This document shows, piece by piece, positions 9,486-46,331 of a DNA stretch of 64,000 nucleotides. Each line of letters starts with the position of its first letter. Within the stretch, counting starts at the first letter, position 1. The DNA is from Haliotis rufescens. Taxonomy: Eukaryota. The notes beneath the pieces were generated by a model. That model ran no database searches. It was not told where the DNA came from and saw only the letters and a list, made by a program, of their open reading frames with translations. Location: the NCBI RefSeq assembly GCF_023055435.1, contig NW_025964371.1, positions 310,001 through 374,000 on the forward strand. The letters run 5' to 3'. The position numbers and the translations under genes are program-made.

Positions 9486-9539
9486 ATTGCAAGTTTACTC
9501 TTCACCAAACTGGACGTTTATGCCCTGTGCTGTATAAAG
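9486..9539 (+). other. Putative 54-nt 5'UTR exon of SLC22 copy A
   Basis: TTTACAG|ATTG...TGTATAAAG|GTGAGT. A homologous exon of the same 54-nt length in copy C (46851-46904) lies only 167 bp before the first coding-exon acceptor. Confidence 0.65.
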
Positions 9540-10058
9540 GTGAGTAATGTTTGTTTTAAATGCGTTATAAAATAACCGCGAAATTGCTCATCAAACAATT
9601 CTGGTTGAATGAGGAAAGGTTAAAGAACCCTTCCATCTGTCCATGGTCATATATTGCCTTCAAAATGATATTTCAGGAATATTGCTAAAAGCGGCTGAAA
9701 ATCATGCACACTCACAACTTTAGTTTTACATTTAGACCAGGGGCGGTATTCATAAAGAAACTAAGATTTTTCTTAAGTCTAAACTTAATTTTTAGAAATC
9801 TGACTTAGCTAAGTCTGAGACTTAACTTGATATTCATAAACATGCTAAGTCCGAAACGTAGTTAAGTCTCAAAAGAAAAACTAAGTCAGTTTCGTAGTAC
9901 GTACCCGCGTGATCACTAGGGGGAATCCCAGCTATTTTTAAACTTCCGGTGGAACTCTTTAAAAAAAAAGGTCTGAACGTCTTTTTCGGTGGGATTTCCC
10001 GGTTGCTATTTACGGCAGACGACACACACAGCGAAACTTTGTCCACATTGCCAACGTC

Positions 10059-12151
10059 ATGTCAGAGGCAGATATCGTTGTCTGTCACTCAGGCAGTCGT
10101 TGTACACAAATGTAGTATTTACACCAGACATGAGTTTTATAAAGTTATATTTTAGCAGTGAACATCTACTAATTTAACTTATCCGAGATATATTAGTGCG
10201 CCAATCAAGCGATTATAAATGCATAATTTACCACTGCATGTAGATTTAATGCAACATTCTACCACTGAGCATGAAATCATCACTATTGGTGATTGGTCCT
10301 GTTATCAGTGGAATTTAAGTCACCTCTGATATAGCCATAACATATTCTATTACTATCATAAACTGGGACATTTGTTATTTCCAATTTGAGTTTTTTAACT
10401 GACAGTGCCCTTGCAGCAGACTTGGGGCTAAATATGAAATCTTGAAGTGATATCCAAAATATTAACATCCTAATTGTCGGCTGAATAAATCAACTTGAGA
10501 AAAATATTTTTTATATATATTTGGGATCAGACTACTTTTTTAATATAATCTCAGCACCCTCACAAAATGCTTGGCCCCTTATTATCTTCATATTTCCACA
10601 ATTGTAAGACACTTACTACTTTCCCTTAACTCTACAGGTTATTACAGCTACCCTCAATTCCTCTGGTTCACACCAGAGAACAAAGGAAGAGGTGGAAAAA
10701 AATGGAAGAACGTGAAAAGCCAGGCAAAACACAAGTACTCCGAATTTGGGAAACTGACAAAAGGAACTGGCAAGTACTTTTCTTCCCTTCATACATACTG
10801 TATACAAGTCAGGGTTATTGCATGACAACTCTTCTATCAATGGTCATTATAAATACGGTATTACCAATAGATCAATTATCAATCATAATGTTCTGTGTAT
10901 TTTTGTATGAAGAATATTATTTCCAAAATACATTTAGATAATGATGATGATTAGAAATTTCATTGTCTTAACCCTTCCATTAACGAACATATATAATAAA
11001 ATTTTAAATGATATAAAAAATTACAGTTTGTAATTAAATGTTTATACAGGAGGTGGACCAGCGCCAGCACCAATCAGCCCAGTGACCAATGCAGTCATTG
11101 ATATCTTAGGCCAGGACAACGTGACCCTAACTGGTGTGCCAGGTTCAATTGACACGACAATGCTGCAGGTGCTGGATCTGATGCCACCTACTGACAGGTA
11201 CATCAATGATATGAGATACCTTTCGGGTTAGAAAATTATCATGGTTCTGTTCTGACATAAATACTGGGTGCTTGGAAAGAGCTTATGGTATCACTATAGA
11301 CGAGCTTGTATATGGCTTATCCTTAATGAGTCCAAATTGAAGTATTTTCTGAATGTTATTCTAGTATAGGTGATGAGAGATTTGCTTAAAGAAAATAGTT
11401 CAAGGCAATCTATAACACTATCTTTTGTCTTATTTGATATTATGTCTGGGAGATGGGATCTTGTTACCTTTGGCTAGTTTTTATCTAAAAGCTTTAAATC
11501 TATAAAACCATGTATACATAACTTTTGTTTTGTTGAATAGTATGTCTGGGAGATAGGTTCATGTTACCTTAGCTAGGCCAGCATCTATCTAAAAAGCTTT
11601 AACTGAAACTACTAATATTTGGTATTTGCATTTTCCCTGGATCCTAATATGTATAACTTGCTGTTCTGTAAGCACATGAAATTTTGTATAAATGTTACAC
11701 CATGAATAACTTATAAAACCACTTGCTGTGGACCTAATTATTATTTGAAAACTTAGTATAAATGTATATTTTTGTATATAATATCAACACCTCAATTGTG
11801 CACAAATTAAGTCAATTGTTGTTTAAACAATTGTGATATGATTATAAATGTAAATGTTCTCATTATAATAACACAAAACAACAGGCTTGTTGAAATTGAA
11901 AAGAACATTTATGTGAAAATTACAATTAAAACTTTAATATTTTCTGTTTCAGGGAGATTTATGACACCGCCATGTCAGATCCACATCCTCAACCAGAAGG
12001 AGCCAACATGTATTCCAAGGAGCCAGATGTCACAGGGTCCCTCACTTCACCAACCGTGGAAACTCTGTTGAAGCAAAAATTAAAGCTTGAAATTGAATGC
12101 CTCACTTTGAAAAAGGAATACCTTAAATTGAAAATCACGAAACTGAATTAG
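10059..12151 (+). pseudogene. Harbinger H1 Myb/SANT-like DNA-binding gene (disrupted)
   Basis: Exon 1 reduced to ATGTCAGAGGCAG (10059-10071). Exon 2 10638-10769 (RTKEEVE..KWKNVKSQAK...KGTG) has a 1-nt loss in an A-run and a GC donor. Exon 3 11050-11197 (GGPAPAPISPV). Exon 4 11953-12151 (KLKLEIECLTLKKEYLKLKI*). Collinear with the intact H2 gene. Confidence 0.85.
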
Positions 12152-12421
12152 CTAAAAGTATCATACATGTTGTTTGGGCACTAAAGAATTATTTATATAT
12201 TTGAATATTAAATGTCACAATACATACTAAGCCAAATGTTATGATACAACAGATTCTGTAGAAAGAACATTGTGGAACATTTTTCAGAAAGAGTACATTG
12301 CATTTAGAATATTGCATATTTAAGACGGTGAGGGATAATTAAGATGATTAAAAACTAAAGATACTTTGCAAAGAATGTACTGCTGATACAAATTGGATTT
12401 ATTATGAGGAAATGTTGAAAA

Positions 12422-14510
12422 TTAAAATAAAATAATCTTACATGGAAAGTTGGTATTGGCAAAGTGCTCCCGGTATCTGAGTGCAGCTACTGGTGGAGCA
12501 GTCACTGCTTGAGCTCCATTCTGCCCATCAAGCCTGCCAAGTCCATCATGCCCATCAGTGGTTGAAACTGGGATATGTCTGTCCTTGCATATGTTGTGTA
12601 GGACAGCACATGCTATTATCACCTAAAATATGAAATCATTAATGATAAATTAACATCATTACACTTAACATTTAGGCTTTTACATGGCCTCAGTTGAACA
12701 TACAAATGTTTATGTAAATAACGAATAAGTTCATACAACCCCATCATTTCCTGATCATCTCCACATGCACATTAACAATTCTATACTTCAAATATTTATG
12801 AATTTTCCCTTATCTGCTCCTAGTTATTACCAATCTACAACTGCCCTGTTATTGCCTTAAATATAAAACTGTATATATATTCACTTGATTTAGATACAAG
12901 TCAATCTGAACAAGTTCATGTCCATGTACAAACTTTAATAGACGATGAGCCACTGCATTGTTTTCATATTCTCAATGGCATTTGTTAACATAAATTCAAA
13001 CAACCATGTTTGAAATAATTATGTAACTCAATAAAATCTTGTTGCTTTTTTCAATCATTGCTTTCCTCTCTAGGAATTGTTATTTTATATATTTATTGTC
13101 ATTTAGCTTTGTTACATTTTTGTTCTGTTGAACTTATTTGTGTGGCAAATAAATAGTGCACACAAATTAACATTTGTTGATCATAATTTTTACCTTACAA
13201 GCCTTCTCAGGTTTTAACCTGATTTCCCCATGGAGAACAGGAAATCTGCGTTTCAGTTGACCAATGGCCCTTTCTACTATGCTCCTGGTTCTTTTGTGTG
13301 ACCTGAAAAAAACATAACATATCAGAGTGTAACCTGTAACATTAATCTTCAACAGGGTTTAAGAAATATATATTTATCTTTTTATTGATAAATGTCACTT
13401 GTTGAAGAAATAATTTTGATCATGTGAAAACAATAATTTACACTTTGGATTATGTAGGAAATTCATACTGGTAATGTTTAAAAAAAATATTCCTAATTAC
13501 CACAAATATTCAGCATGTTTACCAAAACAGCACATAATTACTTGCACATTTAGAACAACTAACAAAGACATAATAATAGATTTTGAAATAAAAACATATG
13601 GTTATGGTGTGAATAATATTCCGTATTTTTTTAAGAATGTTTTTGTATTTGCTTCGATTATCCAGACCAAATATTGCGTTTGTGCAATGGGCAAATATGT
13701 AATCGAGGTATATACAAGGGACATCACTCTAAGTTGTTAAATACGATCGGCAACGTAACACGAAACTTTACATACCTGTTGTAGTTTGTTTGTGGTCCCG
13801 GCAATGGTCTTAGGAAAGGGGTAAGCAGCCACTTCTTGCAGGGATAACCACTGTCACCGAGGAAGTGACATCCGATGGGGAGAACATTGCGCTCGAAAAG
13901 CTGGTAGAGCCCGCTGTTTGTCAACATGCGTGAATCGTGTGTCGATCCCGGCCACCGAGCAACAACGTCAATGACTCTGTCGTCGCTGTCAAAAGCGATC
14001 TGCGTATTTATGCTGTGATAGTGATGTCGGTTTACGAATTCAATTTCCTTTCACTGTTGGTGCCTGGATTTGTACGTGGGTTCCATCGATCACCCCGACA
14101 ACTCCGGAAAAGTTCGCAATATGATAAAAGTTTGTTTGGTGACGCCTAATGTCCCCGAGTTGCAGGGGGAAGCGGACAAACTGTTTCACAATCCTTTCAG
14201 ATGACAAACTGGTGATACACTGATTTACAACTCTGGAAATGGTGGGCTGGGTGACACCTTGATCATCTGCATTACACAACTGAAACTTTCCCGTTGCAAA
14301 GTACCTTAATGGGATCAGCGTCTTTTGTATCTCGTCAAGTGCGTGGTTACGGTTGGTTGCAGGCTCCACGTCAGCTGCTATTAAATTAGCTACGTACCTA
14401 ATGCCATTTCCATCTAAACGGTATCGCCGTATCAACTCCTCATCGTTGTATTCAACAAGACTTTGTCTTCTTTGATGAAACGAACGACGACCTAGTGGTA
14501 CGGCAGCCAT
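12422..14510 (-). pseudogene. Harbinger H1 DDE transposase (HARBI1-like), single frameshift
   Basis: Exons 14510-13776, 13302-13194 and 12622-12442/12422. Motifs LRYFATG, GVIDGTHV, HDSRM, LGDSGYP, VERAIGQLKRRF, IIACAVLHN. One extra A near 14050 breaks the frame. Confidence 0.88.
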
Positions 14511-15206
14511 TTTGTTTACTGACTTAAGTCAAACACCTTGTAGTTAAGCCTATCCCTACCCAGTCTTAAGATTTAAGTCAGAAATTGGTAAAACTTAAGC
14601 CTAAGTCGCTTCATGAATATGACTTAAGTAAAATCTTAAAACTTAAGTCAGAAAAGGTAAAAAACTTTGTTTTTTTCAAGACTTAAGTTTTTTTTCAGAC
14701 TTAAGTTCTTTTATGAATACCGCCCCAGGTCTACATGTTAAGATAGTACTAATAGGGACTCCGTCTATGTGTACAATGCGCTGTGTTTGAACCGACTAAA
14801 TGACCTGCCGCATATTTCATTAATCAAAGCTACCTAGTCCAGACTCTTAATAAAGAAAATACGGTATACTCAAAGGCTAATTCTCTGCGATCCTGGGGCC
14901 GTATTTATCAAACAACTTAGTTTTGGCTTTAAAAAAACCTTAAGTTTCTGAAAAATTACTTAGCCAAGTCAAAAACTTAAGTTGGTATTCACGAAGCGTC
15001 TAAGTAAAAAACTTAGCTAAGTCTGCCGTGAGAAACTAAGTCGATTTCACCGAATGCAAACACGTGATCACTAAGGACTATCCCAGCTATTTTTAGCCTA
15101 CCAGTGGAACTCTTTTCACTAAGAGAGAGAAAAACGTCATCGGGGAATTCCCGGACAGCGCAGACGATAATAAACACCGCTGCGAGCTCCAAGATAGGCC
15201 CACGCC

Positions 15207-17498
15207 ATGACCGAAGACGCGAAAAAGAGACGGCCAAACTTTACCAAAGAAGAATCGTTACTACTAGCAGAGCTGGTGGCATCAAACAAGGTGGTGCTTG
15301 AAGGAAAGTTTGGCCCCGGCATCACCTCCTTGAAGCGACAGGAGGCGTGGCAGGTACGTGAGGTAGTGAGTGTTTTTTTACTGTTTTTTTGAGAGGTTTA
15401 GCTGCTTACATCATTAATTTTACATACATATGTAGCAGACAAGGCCGTAATGCGTATCAAGGAATGCATGTGGTCGAATAATAACCAAGACGTTTTCCAA
15501 CCTTCCATCATCACACTTCGTAAGTCCAGTACCACGGGAATGATATATTTTGGTCATATTTACACAATGAGACCCAAACAATTATATTCGTCTTTTTCAA
15601 GTTGCACTGTGGTTTGTTTCTTCATCGGGGTAGGCCTATTGTCTGTACCCCTAACAACTTTTACCCAAAATTTTAGGTGATTTTGAACCCAAACCAGTAG
15701 CCTAGATCTATGTCATTTTGTACTCCTTTTGGGGCATTTGCATTAGCTTCTAAAGTATACATTAGTCCTAGGCCTCATGTTAGTATCCTAAAGTTACATT
15801 ACTATCACTTTCATGTCAAAAGCATACAATTAAGTTAGTTTAACTAATTTAACAATAACTTATTACAGGGTCAAGATGTCATTTCCATATCAAGACCAAT
15901 CAATGTGTTCCTATGCATTAATTAGTAATAAATATATTGTGATGGATCTCATACAACCTCGATCTAGTGCTGCATAGTCATATTATGAACTTGATGAAAT
16001 GTTATATTATGTAATGCACATATACTCTTGTTTACAATATTAATGTAAAACATATATGACAATATACTGAAATATGAATAATATTATTTTCTTAGTAACA
16101 CAGTCCCATATAATTTTTGGTCGAAACAGCTTTGCTAAAACTGGGCTTTGGATACAAAATATGATACATATCGCAATACTCAGTTCATGATACACTATGT
16201 ATCACGATACATAATTCACTTCAATTTTTATATTTCAATGGACATAAAAACTATTAAAAGGCTTAAAACATCATGAATAATTGGTCTCATGTTTAAAAAT
16301 AAAGATATCTCTTTTCAATCAGTACTTTATTTCAGAAATCAATTTGAGTGTAATACCACAAGGACAGAAATTAAGTCTTAAAACTGGGTACAATGTACAG
16401 TGTGCATATAGCATGATTTAATACTGACAAAAATTATTAATGTAATTTGATGTGTTTTTCATTTGAGTTGTTATGTTTATATTGCAGATGATTACAGACA
16501 CCCTTAATGCAAGCTTAATGCACAGGAGGACCAAGGAGGAGGTTGAAAAGAAATGGAAAAACCTGAAGAGCCAGTCAAAGAAAGCCTTTTCTAATTTAAG
16601 GCAGCAAACCATTGCCACTGGTAAACATACTTATGGATACATTAGTTTAGTTATTAAATAGTTTTGATAAAAAAGGTGACCTAAAATGATATAGTTAATG
16701 TGAAAGTGGAAAAAGGATATTGTCATCCCTTCACAGTTATTATTAAGACCTACATTGTAACTTGTTGCTGTATATTAAGAGTATAATTATACCAACACAA
16801 ACCTATCTCAATGTTTGAAGGTCAAAAGAGTACTTGTCTCTATATTGTGTTGGTTTTGTGATAATATGTTTCTAAATACTATAACACCATTCACACTATA
16901 ACCTATACTGCTTCTTGCACTTACAGGAGGCGGTCCACCTCCCATCCCTGTAAGTCCTGTCACAGATGCAGTTGTAGAGGCCATAGGGAGGGACAACATG
17001 TCTTTGACAGGAATATCCAACTCCTGTGATTCGACGGCCCTACAACTGCTTGATGTCATGACATCAAGAGAGAGGTACAAATGACATAAATGTTGATGTT
17101 GATATTGTACTAACATTATTGCATCACTTAGTATTTCATGTTTGTCAGCTTTGTTACATACTCCCCAAAATATATTTATGAAATCAAAATTTAAAGTATA
17201 CTTCTTTAAAGTTCTTTCCCAATGTGTCTGCAACAGGCAGTCAATTTGCAATTATTGACAAGTCTCTGTATAAAAGCAAAACACAAGGCTCCGAATACAC
17301 AAATAATGTATATATATTTCTTTCAGCGGTGAAGTTGAGGACATGGCCAATGTGTTCAACGTGCCAGAGAGGACTTGCCAGTGCCAGAATCAGACTTCTA
17401 TGGAAGCATTAAACAAAGAAAAACTTGTATTAGAAATTGAATGTTTAAAATTAAGAAAAGAGTATCTAACAAAGAAAATTTACAAAGTAGAAGAATAG
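15207..17498 (+). CDS. Harbinger H2 Myb/SANT-like DNA-binding protein (199 aa, 4 exons)
   Basis: Exons 15207-15353, 16488-16620, 16927-17074 and 17327-17498; all GT-AG and phase-compatible (600 nt). KKRRPNFTKEESLLL...KRQEAWQMITDTLNA...RTKEEVEKKWKNLKSQSK...TGGGPP, with a C-terminal coiled-coil-like segment. Confidence 0.9.
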
Positions 17499-17523
17499 AC
17501 TGTAAAGCTCATGTCACGCAAGT

Positions 17524-17713
17524 GGGGACCGACCATTTGATATTTGCTTGGGGGTAGGGGCTAGTATTATATTTTGTATCAAGATTAGATAGATTTTCAG
17601 CTACAGACACAGATATCGCTTTATTTAAAAATATGAGCTAAATGTTTTTAGAAAAACACCTTGCAACAATGTATTTTTCCCACCCGCCCCCGAATATCAA
17701 ATGGGCTGTCCCT
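17524..17713. mobile_element. MITE (same family as 2377-2668) nested between the two H2 genes
   Basis: GGGGACCGACCATTTGATATT ... CCCCCGAATATCAAATGGGCTGTCCCT. Confidence 0.7.
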
Positions 17714-17722
17714 TAGGAAAAT

Positions 17723-19818
17723 TTAAATTAATACTAAGTGCATACTTAGAGTAATAGTAATAGTAGCAGGAAATAACTTACATGGAAAGTAGGTGATTGC
17801 AAACTGTTCCCGATATCTCAACCCTGTTGCTGCAGGTGCAATGGCTGATAGACCTTGCATCTGTGCCCTTAGCTGTCCGGATTGGCTGTTTCCATGTACA
17901 ACTGGCATAGGCACATTCCTGTCTTTGCTGAGGTTATGCAGCACTGCACAGGCAGTTATTACCTAGAAAAATGTTTAAAAAGCCTATTCAATACCCTTTC
18001 ATGAACTGATGTGGCCTTAATCTAATGACAAATATTTCTAGAATGTGTTGAATTTGACAAAGAGTGAAATGTATGGTCTGTATTTCAAATATGTTATACT
18101 ATGTACTGTTTGATCTCAGATATATTTGCCTAATTTTTTCCCTTAAGCTAGATATAAAATAAGTCAAAAGAAAATGAATATTGAACATCAATACAGATAC
18201 AGATTATGAAATTGTGTTGACTTTTTTTACAATAACACATGACAGTGAGTGAGTGAGTGAGTGAGTTTAATGTCATATTGATGAAATGTTACTGTCTTCA
18301 TTGAATAAAAAATTAATGTTCACCGTATTGTGTTTGTTTATTTATCAACCTACAGTATATCTAGTCCTGACAATAATAATGTGAAAAAGAAATAATTCCA
18401 TTAAAGTGTAAGTCTATGAAGACTCTCCATTTTTTACTGAAATTGAATAAAAAGAAATGAAAACATTTTCTAATTTCTATACCTTGCACGCCTTCTGTGG
18501 GGAAAGTCTGATTTCCCCATGTAAAACATGAAACCGACGTTTCAGCTGCCCAATTCCCCTCTCCACACAACTCCTTGTTTTCTTATGTGATCTGACAATT
18601 GCAATGAATAATCATTATTAGCAGATAATCATATAAAATTTAAATTGGGAGTATAAGAAAAAGAAGAACACATTTTGCTATGTTCTCAGCGATAGAAACT
18701 AACATTTTCAATCCATTGGTCATTATAATGACAACATATTGCAAACCCCTTAATATTGCTGTTTCTTGTTATGTGTGTGGTTATATTTCATAGAATCAAT
18801 GCTTCATACTAGTATGTTTTCATACATAAAAGAGAAGTGAGATAAAATGATTAATATTTCTTACTGATGAATACATAATCATACATATTTTTTACCTGAT
18901 TTGCGACTTACATAATTTTACGACACTTAAGTAGGAATTAAACGGAATGATACTGAATAATACTTTACAGCAAATATGTGTAACTCTTCCATTCCGTTTT
19001 TAGGTTTGAGATAGTATTCTACCTAACCAGGGGAAGTCACTCTATTGCTGAGTGCTCGTAGTGAACTGAACGAAGTAATATTTATACCCGTTGTAGTTTG
19101 TCTGTGGTCCTTGGAGAGGACGCAAAAATGGTGTTAGGATCCATCTCCAACAAGGGTAGCCACTGTCTCCAAGCAGATGACAACTTACTGGTAGCCGGTT
19201 CCCCTCAAACATCTGACATAACCCACTTGTTGTCAAAATGCGGGAGTCGTGTGTTGAGCCAGGCCAACGTGCAACGATGTCGATTATATGATCGTCGCTG
19301 TCAAACACTATTTGTGTATTTACACTATGGTAATTATGCCTGTTGACAAATTCTTTCTCATTGACTGATGGGGCCTGAATCTGAATGTGGGTGCCATCAA
19401 TTACCCCAACAATACCCGGGAAATTGGCAGTCTGATAGAAGCGCTGTTGATGGCGTCTTATTTCTTGGGGTTGTACAGGAAAGGTAACAAATCTACGAAG
19501 GATACGGTGACTTGTGAGGGAGTCAAGCGTTTGGAAAATCACCCGAGATATAGTGGGTTGGCTCAGACCATGGTCATCACCGTTACACATTTGAAACTTG
19601 CCAGTGGCAAGATAACGCAAAGTAACAAGCACCTTCGTAACGCAGGACACGGCACAGCTCCGCTGTGTTATAGGACTCAACTCCTGCTCAAGGATATCAC
19701 AGATATAAACAATACTGTTCCTATCAAATCTGTACCGCTGTATCAGTTCATTGTCATCTAATGAATGTAGTATATCTCTTCTCTCATTAAATATTCTTGA
19801 ATTGCGTCTGGCAGCCAT
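17723..19818 (-). CDS. Harbinger H2 DDE transposase (HARBI1-like, about 340-359 aa)
   Basis: Exons 19818-19088, 18591-18483 and 17962-17782 (or read-through to the stop at 17723), in frame. Catalytic motifs GVIDGTHI, LGDSGYP and VERGIG; also WPGSTHDSRI and ACAVLHN. Confidence 0.92.
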
Positions 19819-20613
19819 TTTACATGACTTAAGTCAAACATACATGATTTAAGCCTAGCAAGGTGAGTCTTAATAGTTAAGTCAGAAAATGACAAAACTT
19901 AAGTCTAAGTCTTTTGATAAATATGACTTAAGTTTTTCCACTAAACTTAAGTAAAAAAACAAGAAAACTAAGTTTTTTTAACTGACTTAAGTTTTATTTA
20001 TGACTTAAGTTGTTTGATAAATACGGCCCCTGATCTTTGTGTTCGATATTGGGACTATTTAGATTCACATATGACCAAATATCTAAAGTGTACCGGTATT
20101 TAGAGTTTTACAGGACACCGTCGCATGGCAGGAGTTCTGCCATATGAACATACACTTACGTGTTCACGCAGATTGTGTGAGTGACGGGTACTACTGGTAG
20201 GGCTAGGCATACTTTCCATTGTCGCGAACCTAGTGTCATCACTGATACTCGAGACTGGTTGTTCTCTGGCGTCGACGTTATATATATTTACACAAGTTAC
20301 CGTGAAATGTGATTTTCTTTCCAAAATAGATGTGAATATCAATTTGAAAGGGAAAGACATTTCAAAGCTTGAAGTAGACAACAACGCAGTAAAACAATAT
20401 CAAGCTACCTTCGTCTGTCCTGACAATTGGATTGCTGTGTACACAGTTAAATATGTATGTCACCAAACCGTCATGCAGGTTCGGTTATAACTAGAGCCTT
20501 AAGATCACAGTAACGTTTGACAACAGTATTAACCCCGTGATGTACCTTTTTTAATCAATACAATACTACCCCGTTGTTCCTTTGCAAACAGTGGAGACGC
20601 TACGATAACAAGG

Positions 20614-23600
20614 ATGCACACGGACGACATCATCGAGGCCGTCGAGGGCATGTCCCGCTTCCAGATCCTCATGGTTGTCTTCATATTCGGTCCAAAAATG
20701 CTGATGGCGTGGGGGATGTTGATGATGTCGTTTGCGGGGACTACTCCAGATTGGTGGTGTGTCCCAGCTACAGCGCCCTCTGTTGATGAGACCGACTACA
20801 TGAACAACGTCACATTGAAATTGTGTCCCACCTCAGACAACATAACCTGTCAGATTGTGTACAGCCAGGATAAAAACACTGTCGCCAGCGAGGTAGGTAA
20901 CCTTAATTCAGTCCAACTGCAACCGTGTAACATCTGAGGTGTTGTTGTGAGCCACAGTATGATATGGATGCAAACCAAACTTGCATAGCGAGCCACAGTA
21001 TGAAATGGATGCAACCCACACTTATGTAGCGAGCAACAGTATGATATGGATGCAACCCACACTTATGTAGCGAGCCACAGTATGATAGGGATCAAACCAA
21101 CACTTATGTAACGAGCCATAGTATGATATGGAACCAACCCACACTTATGTAGCGAGCCATAGTATGATATGGATCGAACCAACACTTATGTAGCGAGCCA
21201 TAGTATGATATGGACCCAACCCACACTTATGTAGCGAGCCATAGTATGATATGGATGCAACCCAGACTTATGTATACATCCAGGATATAAATACTGTCGC
21301 CAGCGAGGTAGGTAGCCTTAATTCAGTCAAACTGCAACCGTGTATCATTTGAGGTGTGGTAGCGAGCCACAGTATGATATAGATGCAACCTACACTCGTG
21401 TAGCGAGCCACAGTATGATATAGATGCAACCTACACTCGTGTAGCGAGGCGAGCCACAGTATGATATGGATGAAACCCACACTTATGTAGCGAGCCATAG
21501 TATGATATAGATGCAACCCAAACTTTCTGAGCGAGCCACAGTTTGATATGGGTCCAACTTACACTCGTGTAGCGAGCCATAGTAGGATATGGATCCAACC
21601 TAAACTCGTGTAGCGAGCCACAGTATGAAATAGATGCAACCTACACTCGTGTAGCGAGGCGAGCGACAGTACGATATGGATTCAACCTACACTCGTGTAG
21701 CGAGCCACAGTATGATACAGATGCAACCCACAGTCATAGCGAGCCTCGGTATGCTATAGATACAAGCCACACTTTCGTAGCGAGCCACAGTATGATATGG
21801 ACGCAACCCGCAGTCATGAAGCGAGCCTCGGTATGACATAGATCCACCCCACACTCTTGAAGCAAGTCCTTTCAGCTGTTGGCGATTTTTGACAAATCTA
21901 GCCACGATTTAAAGGAACATATATACTGCAATTAAAAAGGCGGCTGAAATGAATATACTTTGAAAGACATGGTCTTACATATCCTCTCAGGGGGACAATA
22001 ATTTTACACTACTTTAACTCCCTTTGAGGATACAGCCACAAGCAATCTCAGTTATTAATTTTATTCAACCAATTATAAAAAAACACTGATTATGTACAGA
22101 ATATATCATTCAAATTTTATGCAATAATTCAATTTCCTTTAAAAAAACGATGTCTGAATGAGAACTAAGATTAAAAAGATCCTTGAAGAATGAAACTTTG
22201 AAATAGTTATCCCTTGTGGTGGCAAAATTAATACAGTCAAGCAGGACATGCTTGACTGTGATTCTTTCATCGCAAGAGTTGCAAAACGGAGGATCGTCAC
22301 CTTTCAACAAATACTCGTGTGTATATCTCCTATGGCCAATACATCGTCGCATAATGACCTCTTCAAATCTGGACTGATAGCCCAAGTAGGTATAACCGAT
22401 AATTGGTTTAATTTCATTTAATTTTTTTATACCTACTTGGGTGTCCCACTTCTTCTGCATGAGATCCCTTATGTAACATCTAATAACAGGTTTATAATCA
22501 CTGTATGGTATCAGAAGTGGTGTCACAGATTTGTTGAGAGCTGCTTTTGCATCGGGCATCAGCAATTGTGTTACCAATGATTCCAACATGGCTTGGTAAC
22601 CAACAAAAAACAATGTCATATTGGCCAGTAGCAAGATCATTATACAATTCAATAATTGTGATTAAAATCGGATGCGTACCAGATAGATTGGTAATAGCTT
22701 GAAGGCAAGAGAGTGAGTCTGAAAATATAATGAATTGTTTGTGTTTTGATTGGTTATTGAAATATTCTAATGCTGTGAAAATGGCCTTTTCTTCGGCCGT
22801 AAAAATGGAACAGTTATCAGGTATTCGGTTTGATATAGTCCTGGATCCAATGACAGTGGCGCTGGCAACAGCGTCACCATCCTTGGATCCATCTGTAAAT
22901 AAAGATTTGTAGGTATTGTATGAGGATCGTAGTTGATCATATTCTTGCATAACATTAGTTGATTTGTTTCAGATTTTTTTTTATAATTAGTGAGATACAG
23001 GTCTACTTCAGGCCTCACTAGTTGCCAAGGGGGAGTAGACAAAAGACGGCATGGGGATATTAAGTCTACGTCAATATTTGCATCTGCAATGTGAGACTTG
23101 ATCCAAATGCCAAGTGGCGGTACAAGTTTTGGTTTGTTGTGAAACAGATCCTCATTAAGAGGATGGAAGACGCAGTTATAAGCTGGATTTGATGGGTTTG
23201 TACGCAATTTAGTTATATACTGAAGGGATAATTTTAGTCGGCGTTGTGCAAGTGAAGGCTCATCGTCCTCCACATGCAGACTATCTACAGGAGAGGTTCT
23301 AAATGCCCCAAGACAGAGCCGCAGTCTTTGATGATGTATGCTATCTAATTTCTCTAAATTACTTTAAGCAGCTCCACCATATACATTTGAACCATAATCT
23401 AGGTTAAATCTAATAAGGGATCTGTACAGGCGAAGTAAGGTTGACTGATGCCCACCCCACTTAGTATTTGCAACAACATTAAGTAGATCAAGAGCCTTCA
23501 AGCATTTAGTTATAAGCAATTAAATATGAGGTACAAACGTCAAGTGGCGATAAATAAGACCCAAGAACTTGGTCTCCTCAACAACCTTGATGGGGGCACC

Positions 23601-26600
23601 GTTTAACAATAGTTTCGTGTCTTTATGCGGTCTATAATTTCGACAAAAATGGATACAATTTGTCTTTGCTTTAGAAAATCTAAAGCCATTTTCAAGCAAC
23701 CACTTTTGGGTTTTATTTAGGCAAATCTGCAGTTGCCTTTCTTTTGTATGAATGTTTTTGCCACGACAAGATATGTTGAAGTCATCTACAAAGAGTGACC
23801 CATCAATGGAGTCTTTCAATACCTTGGAGATACTGTTAATTTTAATGCTGAATAAAGTGACAGACAAAATACTGCCTTGTGGGACACCCTGATCCTGATT
23901 GTAATGATCAGACAGGGTTGAACCCACACGGACTTGACATTGTCTGTCAGTTAAAAAACTGGATATAAACTAAGGCAAACGACATCGCAATCCAAAATCA
24001 TGAAGATCTTTTAAAATGCCATGCTTCCAAGTTGTATCATAAGTTTTTTTCTAAATCGAAAAAGATATATACAGCATGTTGGTTTTTTTAAATGGAATTT
24101 TGTATGAATGATTCTAAACGCACAAGATGATCAATGGTACTTCTATTTTTCAAACACCAAACTAATCGATTGTTCACCATACGCTCCATAGTTTTGCAAA
24201 CGCAGCTAGTGTGAATGAGTGAGTGAGTTAAATTTTAAGTCACATCGGCAATATTTCAGCCATATCATGACTATCAATATTTAAACATAATACATATATT
24301 GAAACTTGTATAAAAACCTGTCAACGAAGAACAGTAAAATTACTAGATTCATCACAGAAAAAGATATAAAACTAGTACGGAAATATAAAAGAGAATAGCA
24401 CTATACATAACAATACAAGATAAAAACAGGCTATAGATCGCCAGCAGCTGAAGGTAGACCACCATGACGGTAATTTGATGGATCTGTATGATCCCGTCCA
24501 GGTTTTGGTATAGGGACTACAATTGCATCATGCCACGAAGGAGGAAAAATCCCTGATGTCCAAATATCATCAAATATAGTTAAACGTGTCTGGAGACATG
24601 ATTCAGGCAAATGGTTTAAAAGCTGATAATGAATATTATCAGCTCCAGTTGCAGTCTTTTCCAGTTGCTTAAATTTCTGAAATTTGGGATCATAAATGGA
24701 TGATGAAGACTGCTTGGCTAAAGTTTCGCCTTATTTATTTGCTATGTCGGATTTATCCATTAATATATTATTACCATCTTTGATATGTTTAAAGCTGGAT
24801 TTAGAACCCTTGCCTTTATTTCTTTAAATCATATGGCACAGTTTAGATATAGGTGTGCAGGAATTGATTCTAGAGACATAATGTCTTCAAGACTGACGTT
24901 TATTCTGTTTAAATGTTCGTCTTGCCTTTGCACTATTTATTTTTAAAATATTCAAATTATGGACCGTATAATTTCGACAAAAATGGATACAATTTGTCTT
25001 TGCTTTAGAAAATCTAAAGCCATTTTCAAGCGACCACTTTTGGGTTTTATTTAGGCAAATCTGCAGTTGCCTTTCTTTTGTATGAATGTTTTTGCCACGA
25101 CAAGATATGTTGAAGTCATCTACAAAGAGTGACCCATCAATGGAGTCTTTCAATACCTTGGAGATACTGTTAATTTTAATGCTGAATAAAGTGACAGACA
25201 AAATACTGCCTTGTGGGACACCCTGATCCTGATTGTAATGATCAGACAGGGTTGAACCCACACGGACTTGACATTGTCTGTCAGTTAAAAAACTGGATAT
25301 AAACTAAGGCAAACGACCTCGCAATCCAAAATCATGAAGATCTTTTAAAATGCCATGCTTCCAAGTTGTATCATAAGTTTTTTTCTAAATCGAAAAAGAT
25401 ATATACAGCATGTTGGTTTTTTAAAATGGAATTTTGTATGAATGATTCTAAACGCACAAGATGATCAATGGTACTTCTATTTTTCAAACACCAAACTAAT
25501 CGATTGTTCACCATACGCTCCATAGTTTTGCAAACGCAGCTAGTGTGAATGAGTGAGTGAGTTAAATTTTAAGTCACATCGGCAATATTTCAGCCATATC
25601 ATGACTATCAATATTTAAACATAATACATATATTGAAACTTGTATAAAAACCTGTCAACGAAGAACAGTAACATTACTAGATTCATCACAGAAAAAGATA
25701 TAAAACTAGTACGGAAATATAAAAGAGAATAGCACTATACATAACAATACAAGATAAAAACAGGCTATAGATCGCCAGCAGCTGAAGGTAGACCACCATG
25801 ACGGTAATTTGATGGATCTGTATGATCCCGTCCAGGTTTTGGTATAGGGACTACAATTGCATCATGCCACGAAGGAGGAAAAATCCCTGATGTCCAAATA
25901 TCATCAAATATAGTTAAACGTGTCTGGAGACATGATTCAGGCAAATGGTTTAAAAGCTGATAATGAATATTATCAGCTCCAGTTGCAGTCTTTTCCAGTT
26001 GCTTAAATTTCTGAAATTTGGGATCATAAATGGATGATGAAGACTGCTTGGCTAAAGTTTCGCCTTATTTATTTGCTATGTCGGATTTATCCATTAATAT
26101 ATTATTACCATCTTTGATATGTTTAAAGCTGGATTTAGAACCCTTGCCTTTATTTCTTTAAATCATATCGCACAGTTTAGATATAGGTGTGCAGGAATTG
26201 ATTCTAGAGACATAATGTCTCCAAGACTGACGTTTATTTTGTTTAAATGTTCGTCTTGCCTTTGCACTATTTATTTTTAAAATATTCAAATTATGGACCG
26301 TAGGGTGTCGGCGGAAAAACTTTTCTACCTTTTTCCTACGCTTTCAAGCCTGATTGCAATCGTCGCTAAACCATGGTTTGGGAATGTGCGGGTTCACAGA
26401 GGACTTAGGAATGGTTTCATCAGCTATGTGTTTTAACTGTTCTGAGAACATCTGTATAGGGCCTGGAATGTTATGGAAAGTTTCTGGTTTTAGTGTTTCA
26501 AAACAACGAGTATGAAATAAGGGCCAATTTGCTCTATTAAAATTCCACCTTGTTGAAGGTGGCTCATAAGTTGGAAGAATAGTTTTTAGTAATGTGGGAA

Positions 26601-29600
26601 AATGGTCACTTCCACACAGGTCATCATGAACTGACCAGTCAAATTCGTTCAGCAAATTGGCATCTGTAAGTAACAGATCCAATGCTGAATAAGTCCCTGT
26701 TGCAGGATGTAAGTACGAGTTTGAACCATCATTAAATATACACAAATTATTGTTTGTTATAAAATCTTCAAGGACCGTGCCCTTAGCGTTGGTATCATCA
26801 CTTCCCCACAGAGGGTTATGTCCATTTAGGTCACCCATAATGACACAGGGTTGAGGGAGTTGGTCAAATAAAGGCTGAAGATCAGCCTGCTGAAGGGGAG
26901 AAGATAGTGGAATATACAAAGAGCAAAGTGTGAAGGCGATGTGAAATGTTAGCCGGACTGCAACGGCTTGAAGATTGTTGGTAAGATGAATTTCTCTATG
27001 GATTATGTCCTGTCTCACCAAGATTGCAGAACCTCCAGTGGCTTTTGCTCCTGGAGGGGAGAAGAGATTATACATGTTATATTTCCTGACATCACATTTA
27101 TCTGTGTTCTTAAGATATGTTTCTTGTAAACACAAAGCTGATGGTTTAAAATCTTGAATTAAAAGCTGTAAATCATTAAAATTATTCCTAAATCCTCTAC
27201 AATTCCATTGAATTAAGGTGTACGATTGAGTCATGGTGGCTCAATCGGTTAACACTCACGTACACGTGAGGAGGAAGGACTCTACTCTACTACTGCTCTG
27301 TGACGATGGGGTTACATCCATGTCCAGAGCATCAAAGGAGTTCTGGACAACTATCTCTGAAGATGAGTAGTTCCTGGTTATCTGTTTTTTAGTACTTTTT
27401 TCCTTTCTTTTCTGGTCAAAGGTTGAATGTCTGGTTCTACAGCATTAGATTCTTTAGTGACAAGCACTTCAGCAGCAGACACCGTATTGTCTGGTTCAGA
27501 GAGATTCACAGTTTGGGTGGAAGATGTTTTAGAAGTTATGCTGACAGGTTGATCTGACTTAACCCAGGACAATTCTGTCTGAATAGAGATTGATGAAGTT
27601 TGTGTAACAGTACGAGCAGCAGCTGCAGAATATGTTTTATTTAGTGATGTTGGAGGAGATTTGTTCTCAACAAGTTTCTTTGCCTCTTGAAATGAAATGT
27701 TTTTTTCATGTTTGACCTTCAGAATTTGTGATTGGGTTTGCCACACAGGACATAACCTTGAAGAAGCCAGATGTTGTCCTTTACAATTTGCACATTTTAT
27801 CTCTGCATCACAATCTGTGTTCTCATGTCCACCGCCGCAACGTTGACATATTACAGAGTGGTTACAATATTTTGAGCCGTGACCAAACTTTTGGCACTTG
27901 AACCACCGGAGTGGATTAGGGACATACACCTCCACTCCAATGTTCAGATAACCAGCTTTAATAGACTTAGGAATTGTTGAAAGTGCAAAGGTAAACAGAT
28001 ATGTGTTGGGCGGGATGATGTCACCGTCTCTAGACTTCATAGTGAAACGATTTACTGCTATCACTCCTTGTGTTCTTAATTCTTCTGGGGAGGTTGGGTA
28101 GCATAGTGGTTAAAGCGTTCGCTCGCCACGCCGAAGACCCGGGTTCGATTCCCGACATGGGTACAATGTGTGAAGCCCATTACTGGTGTCCCCCACCGTG
28201 ATATTGCTGGAATATTGTTGGCATATTGCTAAAAGCGGCGTAAAACAGTACTCACTCACTCACTCACTCACTTAATTTTTCTGCCAGCCTGGTTCGGCCA
28301 ATGACAGTAAATTGGAGACAGACAGCACTCAGATATGTATGGGTGCAACCCACATTTGTGTAGCGAGCCATAGTATGATATGGACGCAACCCACACTCAT
28401 AAAGCGAGCCATAGTATGATATGGATGCAACCCACACTCGTGTAGCGAGCCATAGTATGATATGGATGCAACTCACACTCGTGTAGCGAGCCATAGTATG
28501 ATATGGATGCAACCCACACTCGTGTAGCGAGCCATAGTATGATATGGATGCAAACCACATTCGTGTAGCGAGCCATAGTATGCTATGGAAGCAACCTACA
28601 CTCGTGTAGCGAGCCATAGTATGCTATGGATGCAACCCACACTCGTGTAGCGAGCCACTGAATGATATGGATTGGAGCAACCCACGTCCGTGTGGCGAGG
28701 GGGAAACCTTTGAACACTGCATCTCAGTATTCACTTCCTGACATTACCATCGAAAAATGCGTTGGGTCATCGGGAGAAACGAGAAACTGTTACTAAGATA
28801 CTCTACTGCAGAGATGAAGTACTTAGTATCTTGTTGATCATACAGGAATAGAAACAGGGTACCCTATTCCAGTGTCATAACACAGAACATATTGTATATA
28901 ACTCATCGTTCCAAGTGAAATATTTGTAGATGCTCTAGATCGACGTGTTCGACTTCGATCACAACAGGCAGTGTTTGCATCCAAGGCACTTGGAGGATAT
29001 ACACGACATGTGTAACCTTTTTCTGTGTTTTTTTGTCTGATATAACTCTCGCCTTTTGAGCTAGCCGTCAAATCAGCCGTACAGCTGCCTATACCAATAA
29101 AGCGACAAAACCCTTTCCATATGCAATAGATATATCTGAATAAAGCAAAGGAATTGTACAATTCCGATCTTATCGTGAGCGTGTGTTTATGAATCACAAT
29201 CAAATAGTGATGATATCAGGTGATCTCAAAAGGCGAGTGTATCCTTCCCCACTGTTGGCACCTGTTACAAACACATACAAAGGCAAGTCAATTGATCACC
29301 TGAAAAAACAAACCCAAAACATGGGAAAATATGGTACAAGTCTAAATAGGGAATTGCATTGGACATCATTGTTGGCACTGATGTGTGAAATTTGGAAACG
29401 TTGTCCGCATGCCTACCATACAACTTTTGTTGTAACATGATCAAAGAAGTTCTAAGCAAGAGTCGTATGAGCTCTTTGAAATCTTGGTCGAAGAAGCATG
29501 CTCGATTGTATCTCAAAAGTTCTGTATCTTTATGCATAGATCTAAATATGAAACATATGAGGCGGTCTCACTGGTCTCCTTATTTAATTCAGACGTGTAA

Positions 29601-35256: not shown

Positions 35257-38200
35257 CCAGTTTGACTTGAATAAATTAAGCCAGGCGTTGAAGCCTGGGG
35301 AGATTTATTCGTGTGTGTATCTGTTGATGGCAAAATACATCTTGTTTTAGGGTTAAAACTTGAACTTTTCATGATTCAGCGATGACAAAAATGTGTGAAA
35401 CCGACTTGATCTTTGCCACGTGTTTGGTCATCACAGTGCTTAACAAGACGATGTGACACAAACCAGAGATTTATAAAAAATCCTTGTGCGTTAACAGTGC
35501 CAGTATCGTGATACGGGTTAAAGCCATTACTTGATGTCCTTTGCAAATCGCCAACCGTTTTCAGAGCATTTATCCTGGAAGACATGCATTGTCAGAACAA
35601 TCTGTTTCTTGGGGTATTGGCATATATCATTAACGTGCATGTTCAGAGACATAGTATCTTCAGAACGACCAGACTGAAGTCCCATCTTTTGTGCTTAACG
35701 CAGCTGAAATAGTCAGAATCGTACAATTTACTCTTCTTTCAGCAGAGATATCTTATGAATATGGAAAGAGTCTTGTCGCTTTTATTTGATATCATTGATA
35801 TCGGGGGAGGGGGTCATTGGTCCCCAGCTGCAGCATCTTATGTTTGTCGCTTATGGGTTCGATGCCTATCTTGATTGTACTTGTCATCGTACGTCAAGGG
35901 TGTGTGTCGTTTCCCGCAATATTAAACATCTGGTTTTTTTCATAATTCGCATCGGTGACATGTTAGCCAGGTATCATTGGTGTGTTGTCTCTGTGATATC
36001 GATTGATGGACAACCACAAGAAACATGAATAAGTACATATGAGCCAGATACTGTAAACATGAGATAAACATTTGCATGTTAGGGACCGACCGTTTGATAT
36101 TCCGGAATGAGCCTCGAATTTCAGTGAAAAAATACATTGTCCCAAGAAAATGCTTTAATAAAATATTCATGCTTCAGACTGTTGAAAGAAAATAAGATAA
36201 TCTGTCACAAAAAGACCATTGTTGCAAAGTGTTTATATTTAGGCTCATAGTTATAATTAGAAACACAGTATCTGGTTATGCAAATGTAGCTGAAAAAAAA
36301 TACCTACATGTAATCTCCATTCAAATCAGATAAGGGTTCTTGATAATGCTTATACTAGTATATATGAAGTTTGAGCCACATAACACCCATAACATCAGCT
36401 GAACGATCTAACCTAAATAGAACCGTTTTGACACACACTGTTGTGTTACATTCAAAGCTATGTATGTGAGCCCTTTGAGACAGGGAAGGGAGTGACAGAG
36501 AAGAACGCTGTTGACAAGGCACGCTGACCTTCTCACACACCACAGCAGGTCTGACAACAGGTAGGTGAAAGTTGAGAGGGTAACTATAAGCTGATATTAC
36601 GGAGTATGTTTTTACAGTTTGTGTCATGACATTAGAGGGATAGTGATAGAGATAGGGATTGTCCAACACGAAAACCATGGATTTAGATTCAGCTGTTGTT
36701 CTGATCGCTTGATCCAAGGCTTATCGTTGGTTGGTTCTTATTGGGGACTTGTGTTTTGAACCGGCCCCTACATAATAAAAGGCCTGCCGCTTCTTTCATT
36801 ATTGCAAAACTTCCATAACCAGCCCGACGCTTAATAAAGGACATACGGTTTACACAAAGGCTAAATAAATGCGATCATGATCTTTGTATTTCATGTTGGT
36901 GCTATTTAGACGCACATATTACCATTAATGTAAACTGTACCGTATTTAGTTAGACGTAATATCAATTCTTATTTTGATAGAATTTTACAGGCCGCTGGTT
37001 GGAGTTCTTCTGTGTCGCCTCTGACGCATATTTCTTCACGCACATTGAGTGAACGGCGGATGCTACCGCCAGGGCGAAAATGCTTACCCTTTTCGCGAAC
37101 ACCTGGTGTCAAATAGTTTCCTCAGCTATTTTGCCTTTTAAGACCGAATATTTTTCGACGGTTATTCGAGACTGGTTGATCTCTGGTGCAGACGTTTATA
37201 TTTACACAAATGACTGTGCACACAGTTATAAATCAATGCCATAAATACGTCAGGCATGTACAGTTGTATATTAATCCCTAAGTAAAGTTTGCCATGGAGA
37301 ATATTACAAGTGTGAATTCTGCATTCCTAAAACTTATTTGTCCTAATAAGGGACGTCAAAGTTTAATATGAAAGGGAAAGACATTTTAAGGCGTGAGGTA
37401 CACAACAATGCTGAAAACCAATGTCAAACTACCTTCGGCTGTCTCGACAATTGGATTGTTGTGTCCACAGTGAAATATTTATGTAATCAAAACCTCAGGC
37501 ATGTTCAGTTATATATAGATCCTTCAGATCACAGTTACGTTTGCCATCTCTCAGCATTATGATTGATATTATTAGCAACGCCCCACACAGCCCTTGTACG
37601 ATGACATGACAAATCAACTGAGTCACAGAGTATGATGACCAAATGATTACGACCTCTTTTCTGACAAGTTTGTGGATTTAACCAAATGGTAAATGTCTGA
37701 GACCAGCATCACTTCGGTCTTTCCTCCAACTTAAAGCTGACACACCATGATATAACAAAGATACTGTTGAAACGGCGTCCATTCACAGTTTCGACAAGCA
37801 TGGGTGGACTAGGGGCCTTCTCTTATCCGGCATCTGGGAATGACTGTCGCTCGTTCCGATTGCATAGAATGGTATTTTAAAATTGGTATTTAATGTGTTT
37901 TGTATGAAAACGCATGAAGTATGCTCTATTGCTATCACTGGTTTTTCTCGTCCATACTCGATTATTTAAAGACTGGCGTGTTTGAACCTGGAGTGGAGTG
38001 CGACCTTAAACTAACAGATATGCAATGATTTCTTCTTTCAGTGGGGTTTCATTTGTAACCGCAAAATGCTCAATCCTCTCGTCACATCAGTACAAATGGG
38101 TGGAGTCTTTGTTGGGGCATTGCTTGGCGGACAGTCTGCTGACGTCCTCGGTCGGAAGTGGACTAACTTCGTCTGTCTGGTCCTTCAAAGTGGGTTCAAA

Positions 38201-44368: not shown

Positions 44369-46331
44369 TACTGTGCTGCAAAAGAAACGTCACCCCAAGT
44401 AACATTGCATGAAAAGTTGTCATTTAGATAGCCGGGCATTTTTTGTCCAAGTTTCTAAAATTTAACATTTCCTTGTCCGGAAACATGAAATTTCATGTTA
44501 GAAAACAAAGTACGCATCACGGCAACGGCCATGGTAACCAGATGTACGTGAGTTCCGTTGAAATGCACATGCATTCCCCCATTTCTTGCCCTTATAAAAA
44601 TCCACCCAGATCGGATAACATTTATTCGTTATTGAATTGCTACCACATGCCAAGACTGACAAGAAATCAGCGACACCAAGCCCTTGGACTATTGCAAGCT
44701 GGACAAACCACCCGGCAAGTAGCCAATGCATTTCAAGTCCACGTAAGGACCATATAAAGGCTCCAGCAACGGTACCAGACCACCAGCACTACAGATGACC
44801 GACCACGTAGTGGAAGACCAAGGGTAATCACGCGACGTCAGGATCGTCAGATTGTGCGACAGCATCTTCAAGATCGCTTTGTTACTGCTGCAAAACCACT
44901 CGACAGACCATGGGGACATACCAGCGACACATTAGTGCGGACACCGTAAGTCGACGATTGACGAGCAGACACCTCCACTGTCACAGGCCACACCGAGGAC
45001 CCATTCTGACACAACGTCATCGCCGGGACCGTCTTCAGTGGGCATCACAGCACCAGCATTGACGCCACCAGCAGTGGGGAAGAGTCCTCTTCTCAGACGA
45101 GTATCTCAACAGCAGATGGCAGAGAGAGAGAGAGTCTGGCGAAGCCGTGGGGAACGTTATTCGGATGCTTGTGTCGTTGAGAGAGACTCGTGGGCTGATC
45201 CGAGCATCATTGTGTGGGGTGGAATTGGTCTTGGACAGAGGGTCGGCTCTGTGGTCTTCCAGAACATCGGTCTAGGGAGAGGCAATGGTGTCACAGCAGC
45301 TCAGTACATTGATCAAGTCTTGAGACCACACACCATACCTCATCTGGCACGTCGCCGCAACCACGAGTTTCAGCATGATAACGCCCGTGCCCACACTGTG
45401 AGATCAACAAGAGACTTTCTCTTGCAGAATGGCATCAGAACCATGCAGTGGCCTGCCCTCAGCGCCGATTTAAATCCCATTGAGCACCTGTGGGACGAGA
45501 TTCAAAGACGGTTGAATGACCTCCGACCAAGGCCGACAACTGCAGCTGAACTGCGCAAGGCGTTCCTCAGAGTGTCGGCTCATGTGCCTCTGGCCTTCAT
45601 CAACAGCCTCATCCATTCCGTGTATCGACGTTGCACGGCAGTCATCAGTGCACATAAAATCATTGTCCCCCCGAAAGAGTACGTAAGTTCCACATCATTC
45701 AAAGTACATTTGGGTTTACCCCATTTTTAATCGTAGAATATTTGTTATTTTTAATTGATAGCTACAGTTGACTATACTCGCCAGTGGCTGAAGGCATGGT
45801 GTAAATCCTGCTGGGAAGCCGTGAAGGAAGCAGAAGTATTGTAAGTCCCCACGGTCCCTAGTATGGTGGCCTACCTTTGGATGCTGGCGATCTCAAGCTC
45901 GTTTTTATCATGTATTGTTATGTATCGTAATATCATTTTATCGTCCCATACTTGTTTTAAATATGTCTGTGACACTTTAGTTATTTTACTGTCCTTTGCT
46001 GTAAGGTATTTTAGAAAGTTTACACATATTTCGTATGTATGTTTAAATTGTTGTAGTCACGATGTGGCTGAAATACTGCCGATGTGACTGTAAATCTTAA
46101 CTCACTCACTCACTCATCGGTGCACATGGCGGACACACGAGAAACTGATTTGTGACGCCATTTTCTCAGAGATTAGTTAAGTGTTTAACTTTAAGAACAT
46201 CACACACTTTAATTTCAACCTTGATGATCAGTTTCATCTTTTTAATATGTCTCAAAGTATGTTTACAGTGTTTGGACAAATAAGGTTTCTAATGTATCTA
46301 TCCATGGTGACGTTTCTTTTGCGGTCAAGTA
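44369..46331 (+). mobile_element. Tc1-family DNA transposon (disrupted transposase 44647-46148)
   Basis: TIR TACTGTGCTGCAAAAGAAACGTCACC / GGTGACGTTTCTTTTGCGGTCAAGTA with TA TSD. MPRLTRNQRHQALGLL, RPRSGRPR, IIVWGGI, FQHDNARAH, WPALSADLNPIEHLWD, GGHTRN*. Confidence 0.93.
45656..46113 (+). mobile_element. 5'-truncated I/Nimb-type LINE 3'UTR inserted into the Tc1 transposase
   Basis: 14-bp TSD TCATC(A/G)GTGCACAT at 45642-45655 and 46114-46127. (ACTC)n tail. Its 5' part is homologous to the 3'UTR of the LINE at about 21870-22010. Confidence 0.88.

Follow-up and report, generated by a model that had tools for sequence, protein, structure and literature searches.

A stretch of 64,000 nucleotides from Haliotis rufescens (RefSeq assembly GCF_023055435.1, contig NW_025964371.1, positions 310,001 to 374,000 of the forward strand; "the window" in what follows, with positions numbered from its first base) carries a complete Harbinger-type transposon at 14896-20029. 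The element is 5134 bp long, has perfect 24-bp terminal inverted repeats (TIRs), and contains two convergent genes on opposite strands, one for a Myb/SANT protein and one for a DDE transposase. It is, in our judgment, probably a full-length two-gene NuwaI transposon of a low-copy abalone family, likely a recent insertion at this locus, and its own transposase is likely starting to decay.

The ends of the element are well defined. The left TIR (14896..14919, plus strand) starts with GGG and is mirrored by the right TIR (20006..20029, minus strand), and the two are flanked by paired CTG copies of the target site duplication (TSD) at 14893..14895 and 20030..20032. Exact inverted repeats of at least 24 bp occurred in none of 20 shuffled windows. 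A 25-bp TIR with no TSD was also considered, and it is ruled out by contigs from other sequencing runs that carry the empty orthologous site. In these contigs a joint from 14891 to 20029 skips 5137 bases (i.e., the 5134-bp element plus one 3-bp copy of the duplication) and keeps a single CTG, which settles the 24-bp reading. An earlier reading of the window from its letters alone (below, the sequence-only reading) had proposed the perfect 24-bp TIRs and the CTG duplication, and both inspection of the ends and the empty-site joint bear it out.

The empty site deserves some attention, as does the sampling behind it. Of 24 sequencing runs listed, 20 carry the stretch or part of it (16 at least half of its words, from nine studies). 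Four of the 24 were aligned to the window, namely X1 and X12 (both DNA), X10, and X21 (small RNA); alignment of run contigs required 90% identity, and the contig comparisons rest on 24 of 4669 pieces. The empty joint is present in both DNA runs aligned, which come from two separate studies: two contigs carry it in X1 and one in X12, and their short sides measure 22 and 47 bases, respectively. A check for insertion polymorphism, proposed when the element was first noticed, is thus positive in two of two DNA runs. Harbinger-type elements excise precisely, without a footprint (PMC2836001), so the empty site may be either ancestral or left by excision, and mobility would be indicated both ways.

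It should be noted that the window itself holds a paralogous segment without the insertion (36776..36949, plus strand). This segment is alike at 134 of 175 bases (77%) across the insertion point, without a gap, and ATG replaces CTG at 36877-36879, just as the sequence-only reading had described for about position 36870. It matches the corresponding stretch of the empty-joint contigs at only 38/47 and 36/47 bases, below the 90% needed for alignment. The further claim that the insertion postdates the duplication that produced the paralogue is true, yet it dates the event weakly, given that the paralogue is 23% diverged and excision is footprint-free. The orthologous empty site is the better basis for dating.

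Both genes are open. The Myb/SANT gene, on the plus strand, has four exons (15207..15353, 16488..16620, 16927..17074, and 17327..17498, the last carrying the stop), introns that are all GT-AG, and a predicted product of 199 aa. Exons 1 and 2 together encode a Myb_DNA-bind_5 domain (PF13873; E-value 1.5e-16 on the identical protein P0168). The predicted protein equals RefSeq protein P0168 at 199/199 residues, so the splice models hold, and with them the four-exon, 199-aa gene originally proposed. Extra donors after exon 1, at 15362 and 15365, fit RefSeq isoforms with 3 and 4 additional residues.

The transposase gene is on the minus strand. Its exon 1 (19088..19818) encodes D141 and D218 and matches DDE_Tnp_4 (PF13359; E-value 7e-22), exon 2 (18483..18591) encodes E254, and exon 3 (17782..17962) ends at a donor that splits the stop codon after 17782, giving a 340-aa form; read-through to 17723 would give 359 aa. 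The frame is open with the catalytic triad D141, D218, and E254 present, and the open spliced DDE transposase of the sequence-only reading is confirmed. RefSeq transposases share the first two introns of the window copy. Two lengths are found among them, 340 aa with a third intron after 17782 and 368 aa by read-through. There are two candidates for the last acceptor, 17397 and 17265, each of which completes a stop. Because both candidates (window span 17265-17782) lie within or past the last Myb exon on the opposite strand, transcripts of the two genes may overlap in antisense. Between the genes sits a nested repeat of ~190 bp with imperfect inverted ends (17525..17712), which is also found in family contigs; 8-17 contigs have loose ends at 17525, 17571, and 17678, and one gapless 1217-nt contig spans the repeat.

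A structure model of the sister copy P0122 (pLDDT 86) places D141 in strand 136-147, D218 after strand 214-216, and E254 in helix 238-263. One search for a close solved structure of the transposase gave no sequence matches at E-values up to 1, another gave none at E-values up to 0.001, and Foldseek returned only weak transposase and integrase rows.

Two residues in the window transposase stand out, R224W (position 19149) and R244G (position 19089). Both changes are private to this copy: of 13 cluster members, 11 extend over both positions, and every one of these has R at each. Among 147 aligned homologues, residue 224 is W in none, K in 103, and R in 36; among 144 at residue 244, G occurs in 4 and R in 121. 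At position 19149 the R allele accounts for all depth in X1, X12, and X10. The base change behind R224W is a CpG transition, and CpG transitions are typical of methylated copies. In the P0122 model R224 is in the loop that follows D218, and R244 is in the predicted helix that carries E254. The base behind R244G doubles as position -2 of the donor of intron 1, and retention of intron 1 would stop the transposase at 263 aa, ahead of E254. Being at conserved basic residues, the two changes may weaken the transposase of the window copy.

The check for near-identical copies, also proposed when the element was first noticed, has a favorable outcome as well. The proteins closest to transposase exon 1 are from Haliotis rufescens (99%), followed by H. 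cracherodii, H. rubra (85%), and Gigantopelta aegis (74%), and a tree of 34 rows built from database homologues places the window transposase among the H. rufescens copies, within a gastropod clade that is well supported. RefSeq lists full-length H. rufescens transposases on three contigs, each 5-6 residues from the window copy over 339, with two more that are partial. Myb proteins of the family are found at ~9 H. rufescens loci, eight of them full-length and 0-6 residues from the window protein; those located on small contigs may represent duplicate haplotypes. The excess of Myb loci (~9) over transposase loci (5) may mean that some loci are Myb-only derivatives, of the kind known from C. inopinata, or that annotation is uneven. 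Several copies occur in H. cracherodii, some of them truncated and one with D141V.

The run contigs tell a similar story. Compared with the longest contigs listed, the window copy differs at 5 of 2794 bases in X1 (0.18%, three contigs), at 17 of 3389 in X10 (0.5%), and at 11 of 1863 in X12 (0.6%). X10 is identical to the window over 14901-15346, including Myb residues at which all H. cracherodii copies differ. Contig depth in the interior of the element exceeds that at the empty joint several-fold (52-68 vs. 24 summed in X1, and 195-333 vs. 35-45 in X12), a ratio that hints at multiple copies and is not a copy number. Given the clean empty site and the distances of 0.2%-0.6% to family contigs, this appears to be a low-copy abalone family that has been recently mobile.

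How far can the evidence for activity be taken? The sequence-only reading proposed a native active element, and the part of this that stands is a complete, young, low-copy two-gene family; the window copy, with R224W and R244G private to it, is not the best candidate for activity within that family. That this copy is itself fully active, autonomous, and moving now fits with its perfect TIRs, two open frames, and intact triad, with a Myb protein identical to one in RefSeq, and with empty alleles elsewhere. However, the two private changes fall at conserved basic positions (one of them at a splice donor and the other a CpG transition) and spliced reads were not seen, and we consider full activity of this copy unlikely. 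The family as a whole may be on the move in present-day abalone, its native proteins unaltered, with sister copies as the source even if the window copy is not; this is possible, and we hold it only tentatively.

In the opposite direction, the family could be dead and the insertion old and fixed, or specific to a species, in which case the empty site would come from a sister species or from an unseen paralogue. Near-identical copies exist in both H. rufescens and H. cracherodii, so some of the likeness is older than the species split, the H. cracherodii copies include truncated ones and the D141V change, and the species of the runs are coded rather than named. This is hard to reconcile with a distance of only 0.18% to the X1 contigs, perfect TIRs, near-identical full-length transposases kept at three H. 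rufescens loci, and the identity of X10 over a region in which all H. cracherodii copies differ in Myb residues; we judge it quite improbable. Domestication of both genes as host genes (HARBI1/NAIF1-like) would agree with the RefSeq name "putative nuclease HARBI1", but against it stand the TIRs, the target duplication, the presence of several loci in a genome, and the lack of the element at the orthologous site in other animals, and we give it almost no credence.

Several observations do weigh against our preferred account, that of a recently inserted NuwaI copy with a decaying transposase. Copies were counted through RefSeq protein loci, an indirect measure. X1 and X12 are taken to be from the species of the window by sequence likeness, the filled allele may be present in them as well, and the empty-site contigs could derive from a paralogue that lies beyond the window and is closer in sequence. 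The target site matches the 15-bp target consensus of zebrafish Harbinger3_DR (PMC3016246) at 9/15 positions, a score equalled or exceeded by 183 of the window's 1980 CWG sites, and this modest match lends weak support. Regarding decay, the catalytic triad is intact and G is found at residue 244 in 4 homologues. Regarding expression, no splice was present among the 15 of 54 joints listed, and the X10 contigs run unspliced across the introns. X10 had been guessed to be an RNA run, but its contigs continue through the introns, as DNA would, and the host exon at 20449-20800 has zero depth; it is therefore uninformative on splicing. In the small-RNA run X21, only 2 of 21.6 million records aligned, both partially, too few to inform on PIWI-interacting RNA (piRNA) silencing. 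RefSeq isoform models usually rest on RNA reads, so the models for sister copies indirectly support transcription and splicing of those copies as predicted.

The subterminal regions suggest how the element may be recognized. CTTAAG palindromes occur twice in the left subterminal region (14920..15100) and six times in the right (19820..20005, the last reaching into the TIR). The window has 27 of them in all, 16 of which fall within the four ends of this element and of a related one upstream (see below), and 4721 interior bases hold 2. Given this concentration in the ends relative to the interior, the clustered palindromes are likely candidate Myb-binding sites. Harbinger3_DR and rice Ping/Pong depend on both proteins. 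Their Myb protein binds the transposase, which it brings into the nucleus, as well as DNA at terminal or subterminal positions, and excision is clean (PMC2836001). By analogy, the abalone Myb/SANT protein would bind the element ends, with the clustered palindromes as candidate sites, and would escort the DDE transposase into the nucleus and to the TIRs; together they would excise the element cleanly and integrate it at a CWG-centered site, duplicating three bases. The window element, whose ends are perfect and whose Myb protein is the same as that of a sister copy, could be mobilized in trans by sister copies that retain R224 and R244.

A second element, overlooked by the sequence-only reading, lies 164 bp upstream at 9741..14725 (4985 bp), flanked by CAG duplications at 9738-9740 and 14726-14728. 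It has the same gene layout and intron positions and belongs to a sister family, its transposase being ~70% identical in DNA to that of the main element. In the tree it groups with an H. rubra transposase, as sister to the clade of the main element. This copy is damaged, with frameshifts in the transposase at 14052 and in the Myb gene near 10695 and most of Myb exon 1 lost after the start. Contigs of the sister family in X1, X10, and X12 lack both frameshifts, and those in X1 and X10 are 1.2%-1.3% from the upstream element, which for these reasons is the older of the two and whose family may be intact elsewhere. Its target matches the Harbinger3_DR consensus at 10/15 (reached by 56 of the 1980 CWG sites, again weak support), and the target flanks are nearly palindromic. 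In X12, a joint from 9850 to 14710 that skips 4859 bases suggests an internal-deletion derivative of the size of a miniature inverted-repeat transposable element (MITE); other internal deletions are listed too. Another X12 joint, from 9718 to 14728, would be an allele without the upstream element and also without ~19 flanking bases, and it is weak, having a short side of 30 bases that lies in a repeat.

Both Harbingers are upstream of a host transporter gene. The first coding exon of this copy (20614..20892, plus strand) begins 0.6 kb downstream of the main element, and the next exon matches Sugar_tr/MFS_1. It is the first of three tandem major facilitator superfamily (MFS) transporter copies (window 20614-55500) that we take to be SLC22-like; the evidence for the SLC22 label reaches only as far as Pfam Sugar_tr/MFS_1. 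Copy 1 is the only one in the window with an open first coding exon: copy 2 has no match to that exon, and in copy 3 the exon carries a 17-bp deletion. A conserved splice-donor-like site at 9539 and 46906, in the first case upstream of both Harbingers, suggests that the two elements are in an intron of the transporter 5' untranslated region. Elsewhere in the window there is a broken Tc1-like transposase at 44428-45727 (DDE_3, E-value 1e-11, with HTH_23 in a different frame), for which a short scan found no inverted ends. A 1334-bp tandem duplication at 23633-26302 (99.5% identity) is either recent or an assembly artefact, and tandem arrays with units of 41 bp and ~181 bp occupy 20861-21907, 28236-28822, and 60697-61905.

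With its natural full-length copies, clean empty allele, and very low divergence, this family is a good place to seek a native active two-protein animal Harbinger. If activity were established, this would be a naturally active NuwaI Harbinger; within that group the literature searched records activity for the rebuilt Harbinger3_DR alone. Molluscs would then have a native tool for integration that is sequence-selective and leaves no footprint. Abalone are farmed, and the only transposase-based transgenesis in molluscs in the literature searched is a piggyBac trial in oyster. The family is a fair candidate for a native mollusc transposon tool. In any assay, the transposase of a sister copy belongs beside that of the window copy.

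Assignment to NuwaI is by features, and the tree covered database homologues only. According to Han et al. 2015 (PMC4482050), NuwaI, a group of PHIS, has a CWG duplication, TIRs of 12-61 bp that start with GGG, a DDE gene plus a Myb/SANT gene, and a length of ~4.5 kb, and is restricted to animals, whereas PIF/Harbinger in the narrow sense has a TWA duplication. The abalone element has a CWG TSD (CTG, and CAG in the upstream element), a 24-bp TIR starting with GGG, a DDE_Tnp_4 transposase whose sister-copy model agrees with the triad placement of the group (first D between strands, second D after a strand, E in a helix), and a Myb/SANT open reading frame (ORF); TWA was found at neither element. 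On these grounds it appears to be a CWG-type, Harbinger3_DR-like NuwaI. The sequence-only reading regarded naturally intact animal copies as uncommon, and this is not supported by the same survey, in which both ORFs were scored intact in 11 of 23 NuwaI families and in 88 of the 214 families of PIF/Harbinger.

Among known systems, Harbinger3_DR of zebrafish, a NuwaI member (as NuwaI-2_DRer) listed at 4204 bp with proteins of 343 and 221 aa (PMC4482050 and its Table S5), is alike by description in its CWG duplication, ~340-aa DDE_Tnp_4 transposase, ~200-aa Myb_DNA-bind_5 partner, and size of 4-5 kb. It is unlike in its 12-bp TIR, compared with 24 bp in abalone, and in a target consensus that the abalone site matches at only 9/15, and its activity was seen only after reconstruction from a consensus (PMC2836001), whereas the abalone family has natural full-length copies. 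Four oyster families are also NuwaI members (PMC4482050), with elements of 5114 and 4889 bp (342 and 341 aa) in Table S5; Harbinger-4_CGi, Harbinger-5_CGi, and Harbinger-8_CGi resemble ours in mollusc host, CWG duplication, TIRs of 18-24 bp, length of 4.9-8.5 kb, and presence of both domains (PMC4482050). The bivalve transposases that we found are ~50%-63% identical and fall outside the gastropod clade of the abalone element. A survey of bivalves curated 58 full-length PIF-Harbinger consensus elements (PMC10294476).

Harbinger-1M_cIno of Caenorhabditis inopinata is likewise an animal PIF/Harbinger with recent movement (bioRxiv 10.64898/2026.05.26.728016). In contrast to the abalone element, it has a TWA duplication and its genes are on separate elements, and its movement was seen directly as a new mutation, whereas that in abalone is deduced from an empty allele. 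Rice Ping/Pong are alike in requiring two proteins, in precise excision, and in an extended target preference, and differ in plant lineage, TAA/TTA duplication, and directly demonstrated activity (PMC2836001). In a literature search that left most subscription papers and Repbase outside, we found neither this abalone family nor any natively active CWG-type element described. The type is already known and has been recorded in a mollusc, and the abalone family is a young, complete addition to a known group.

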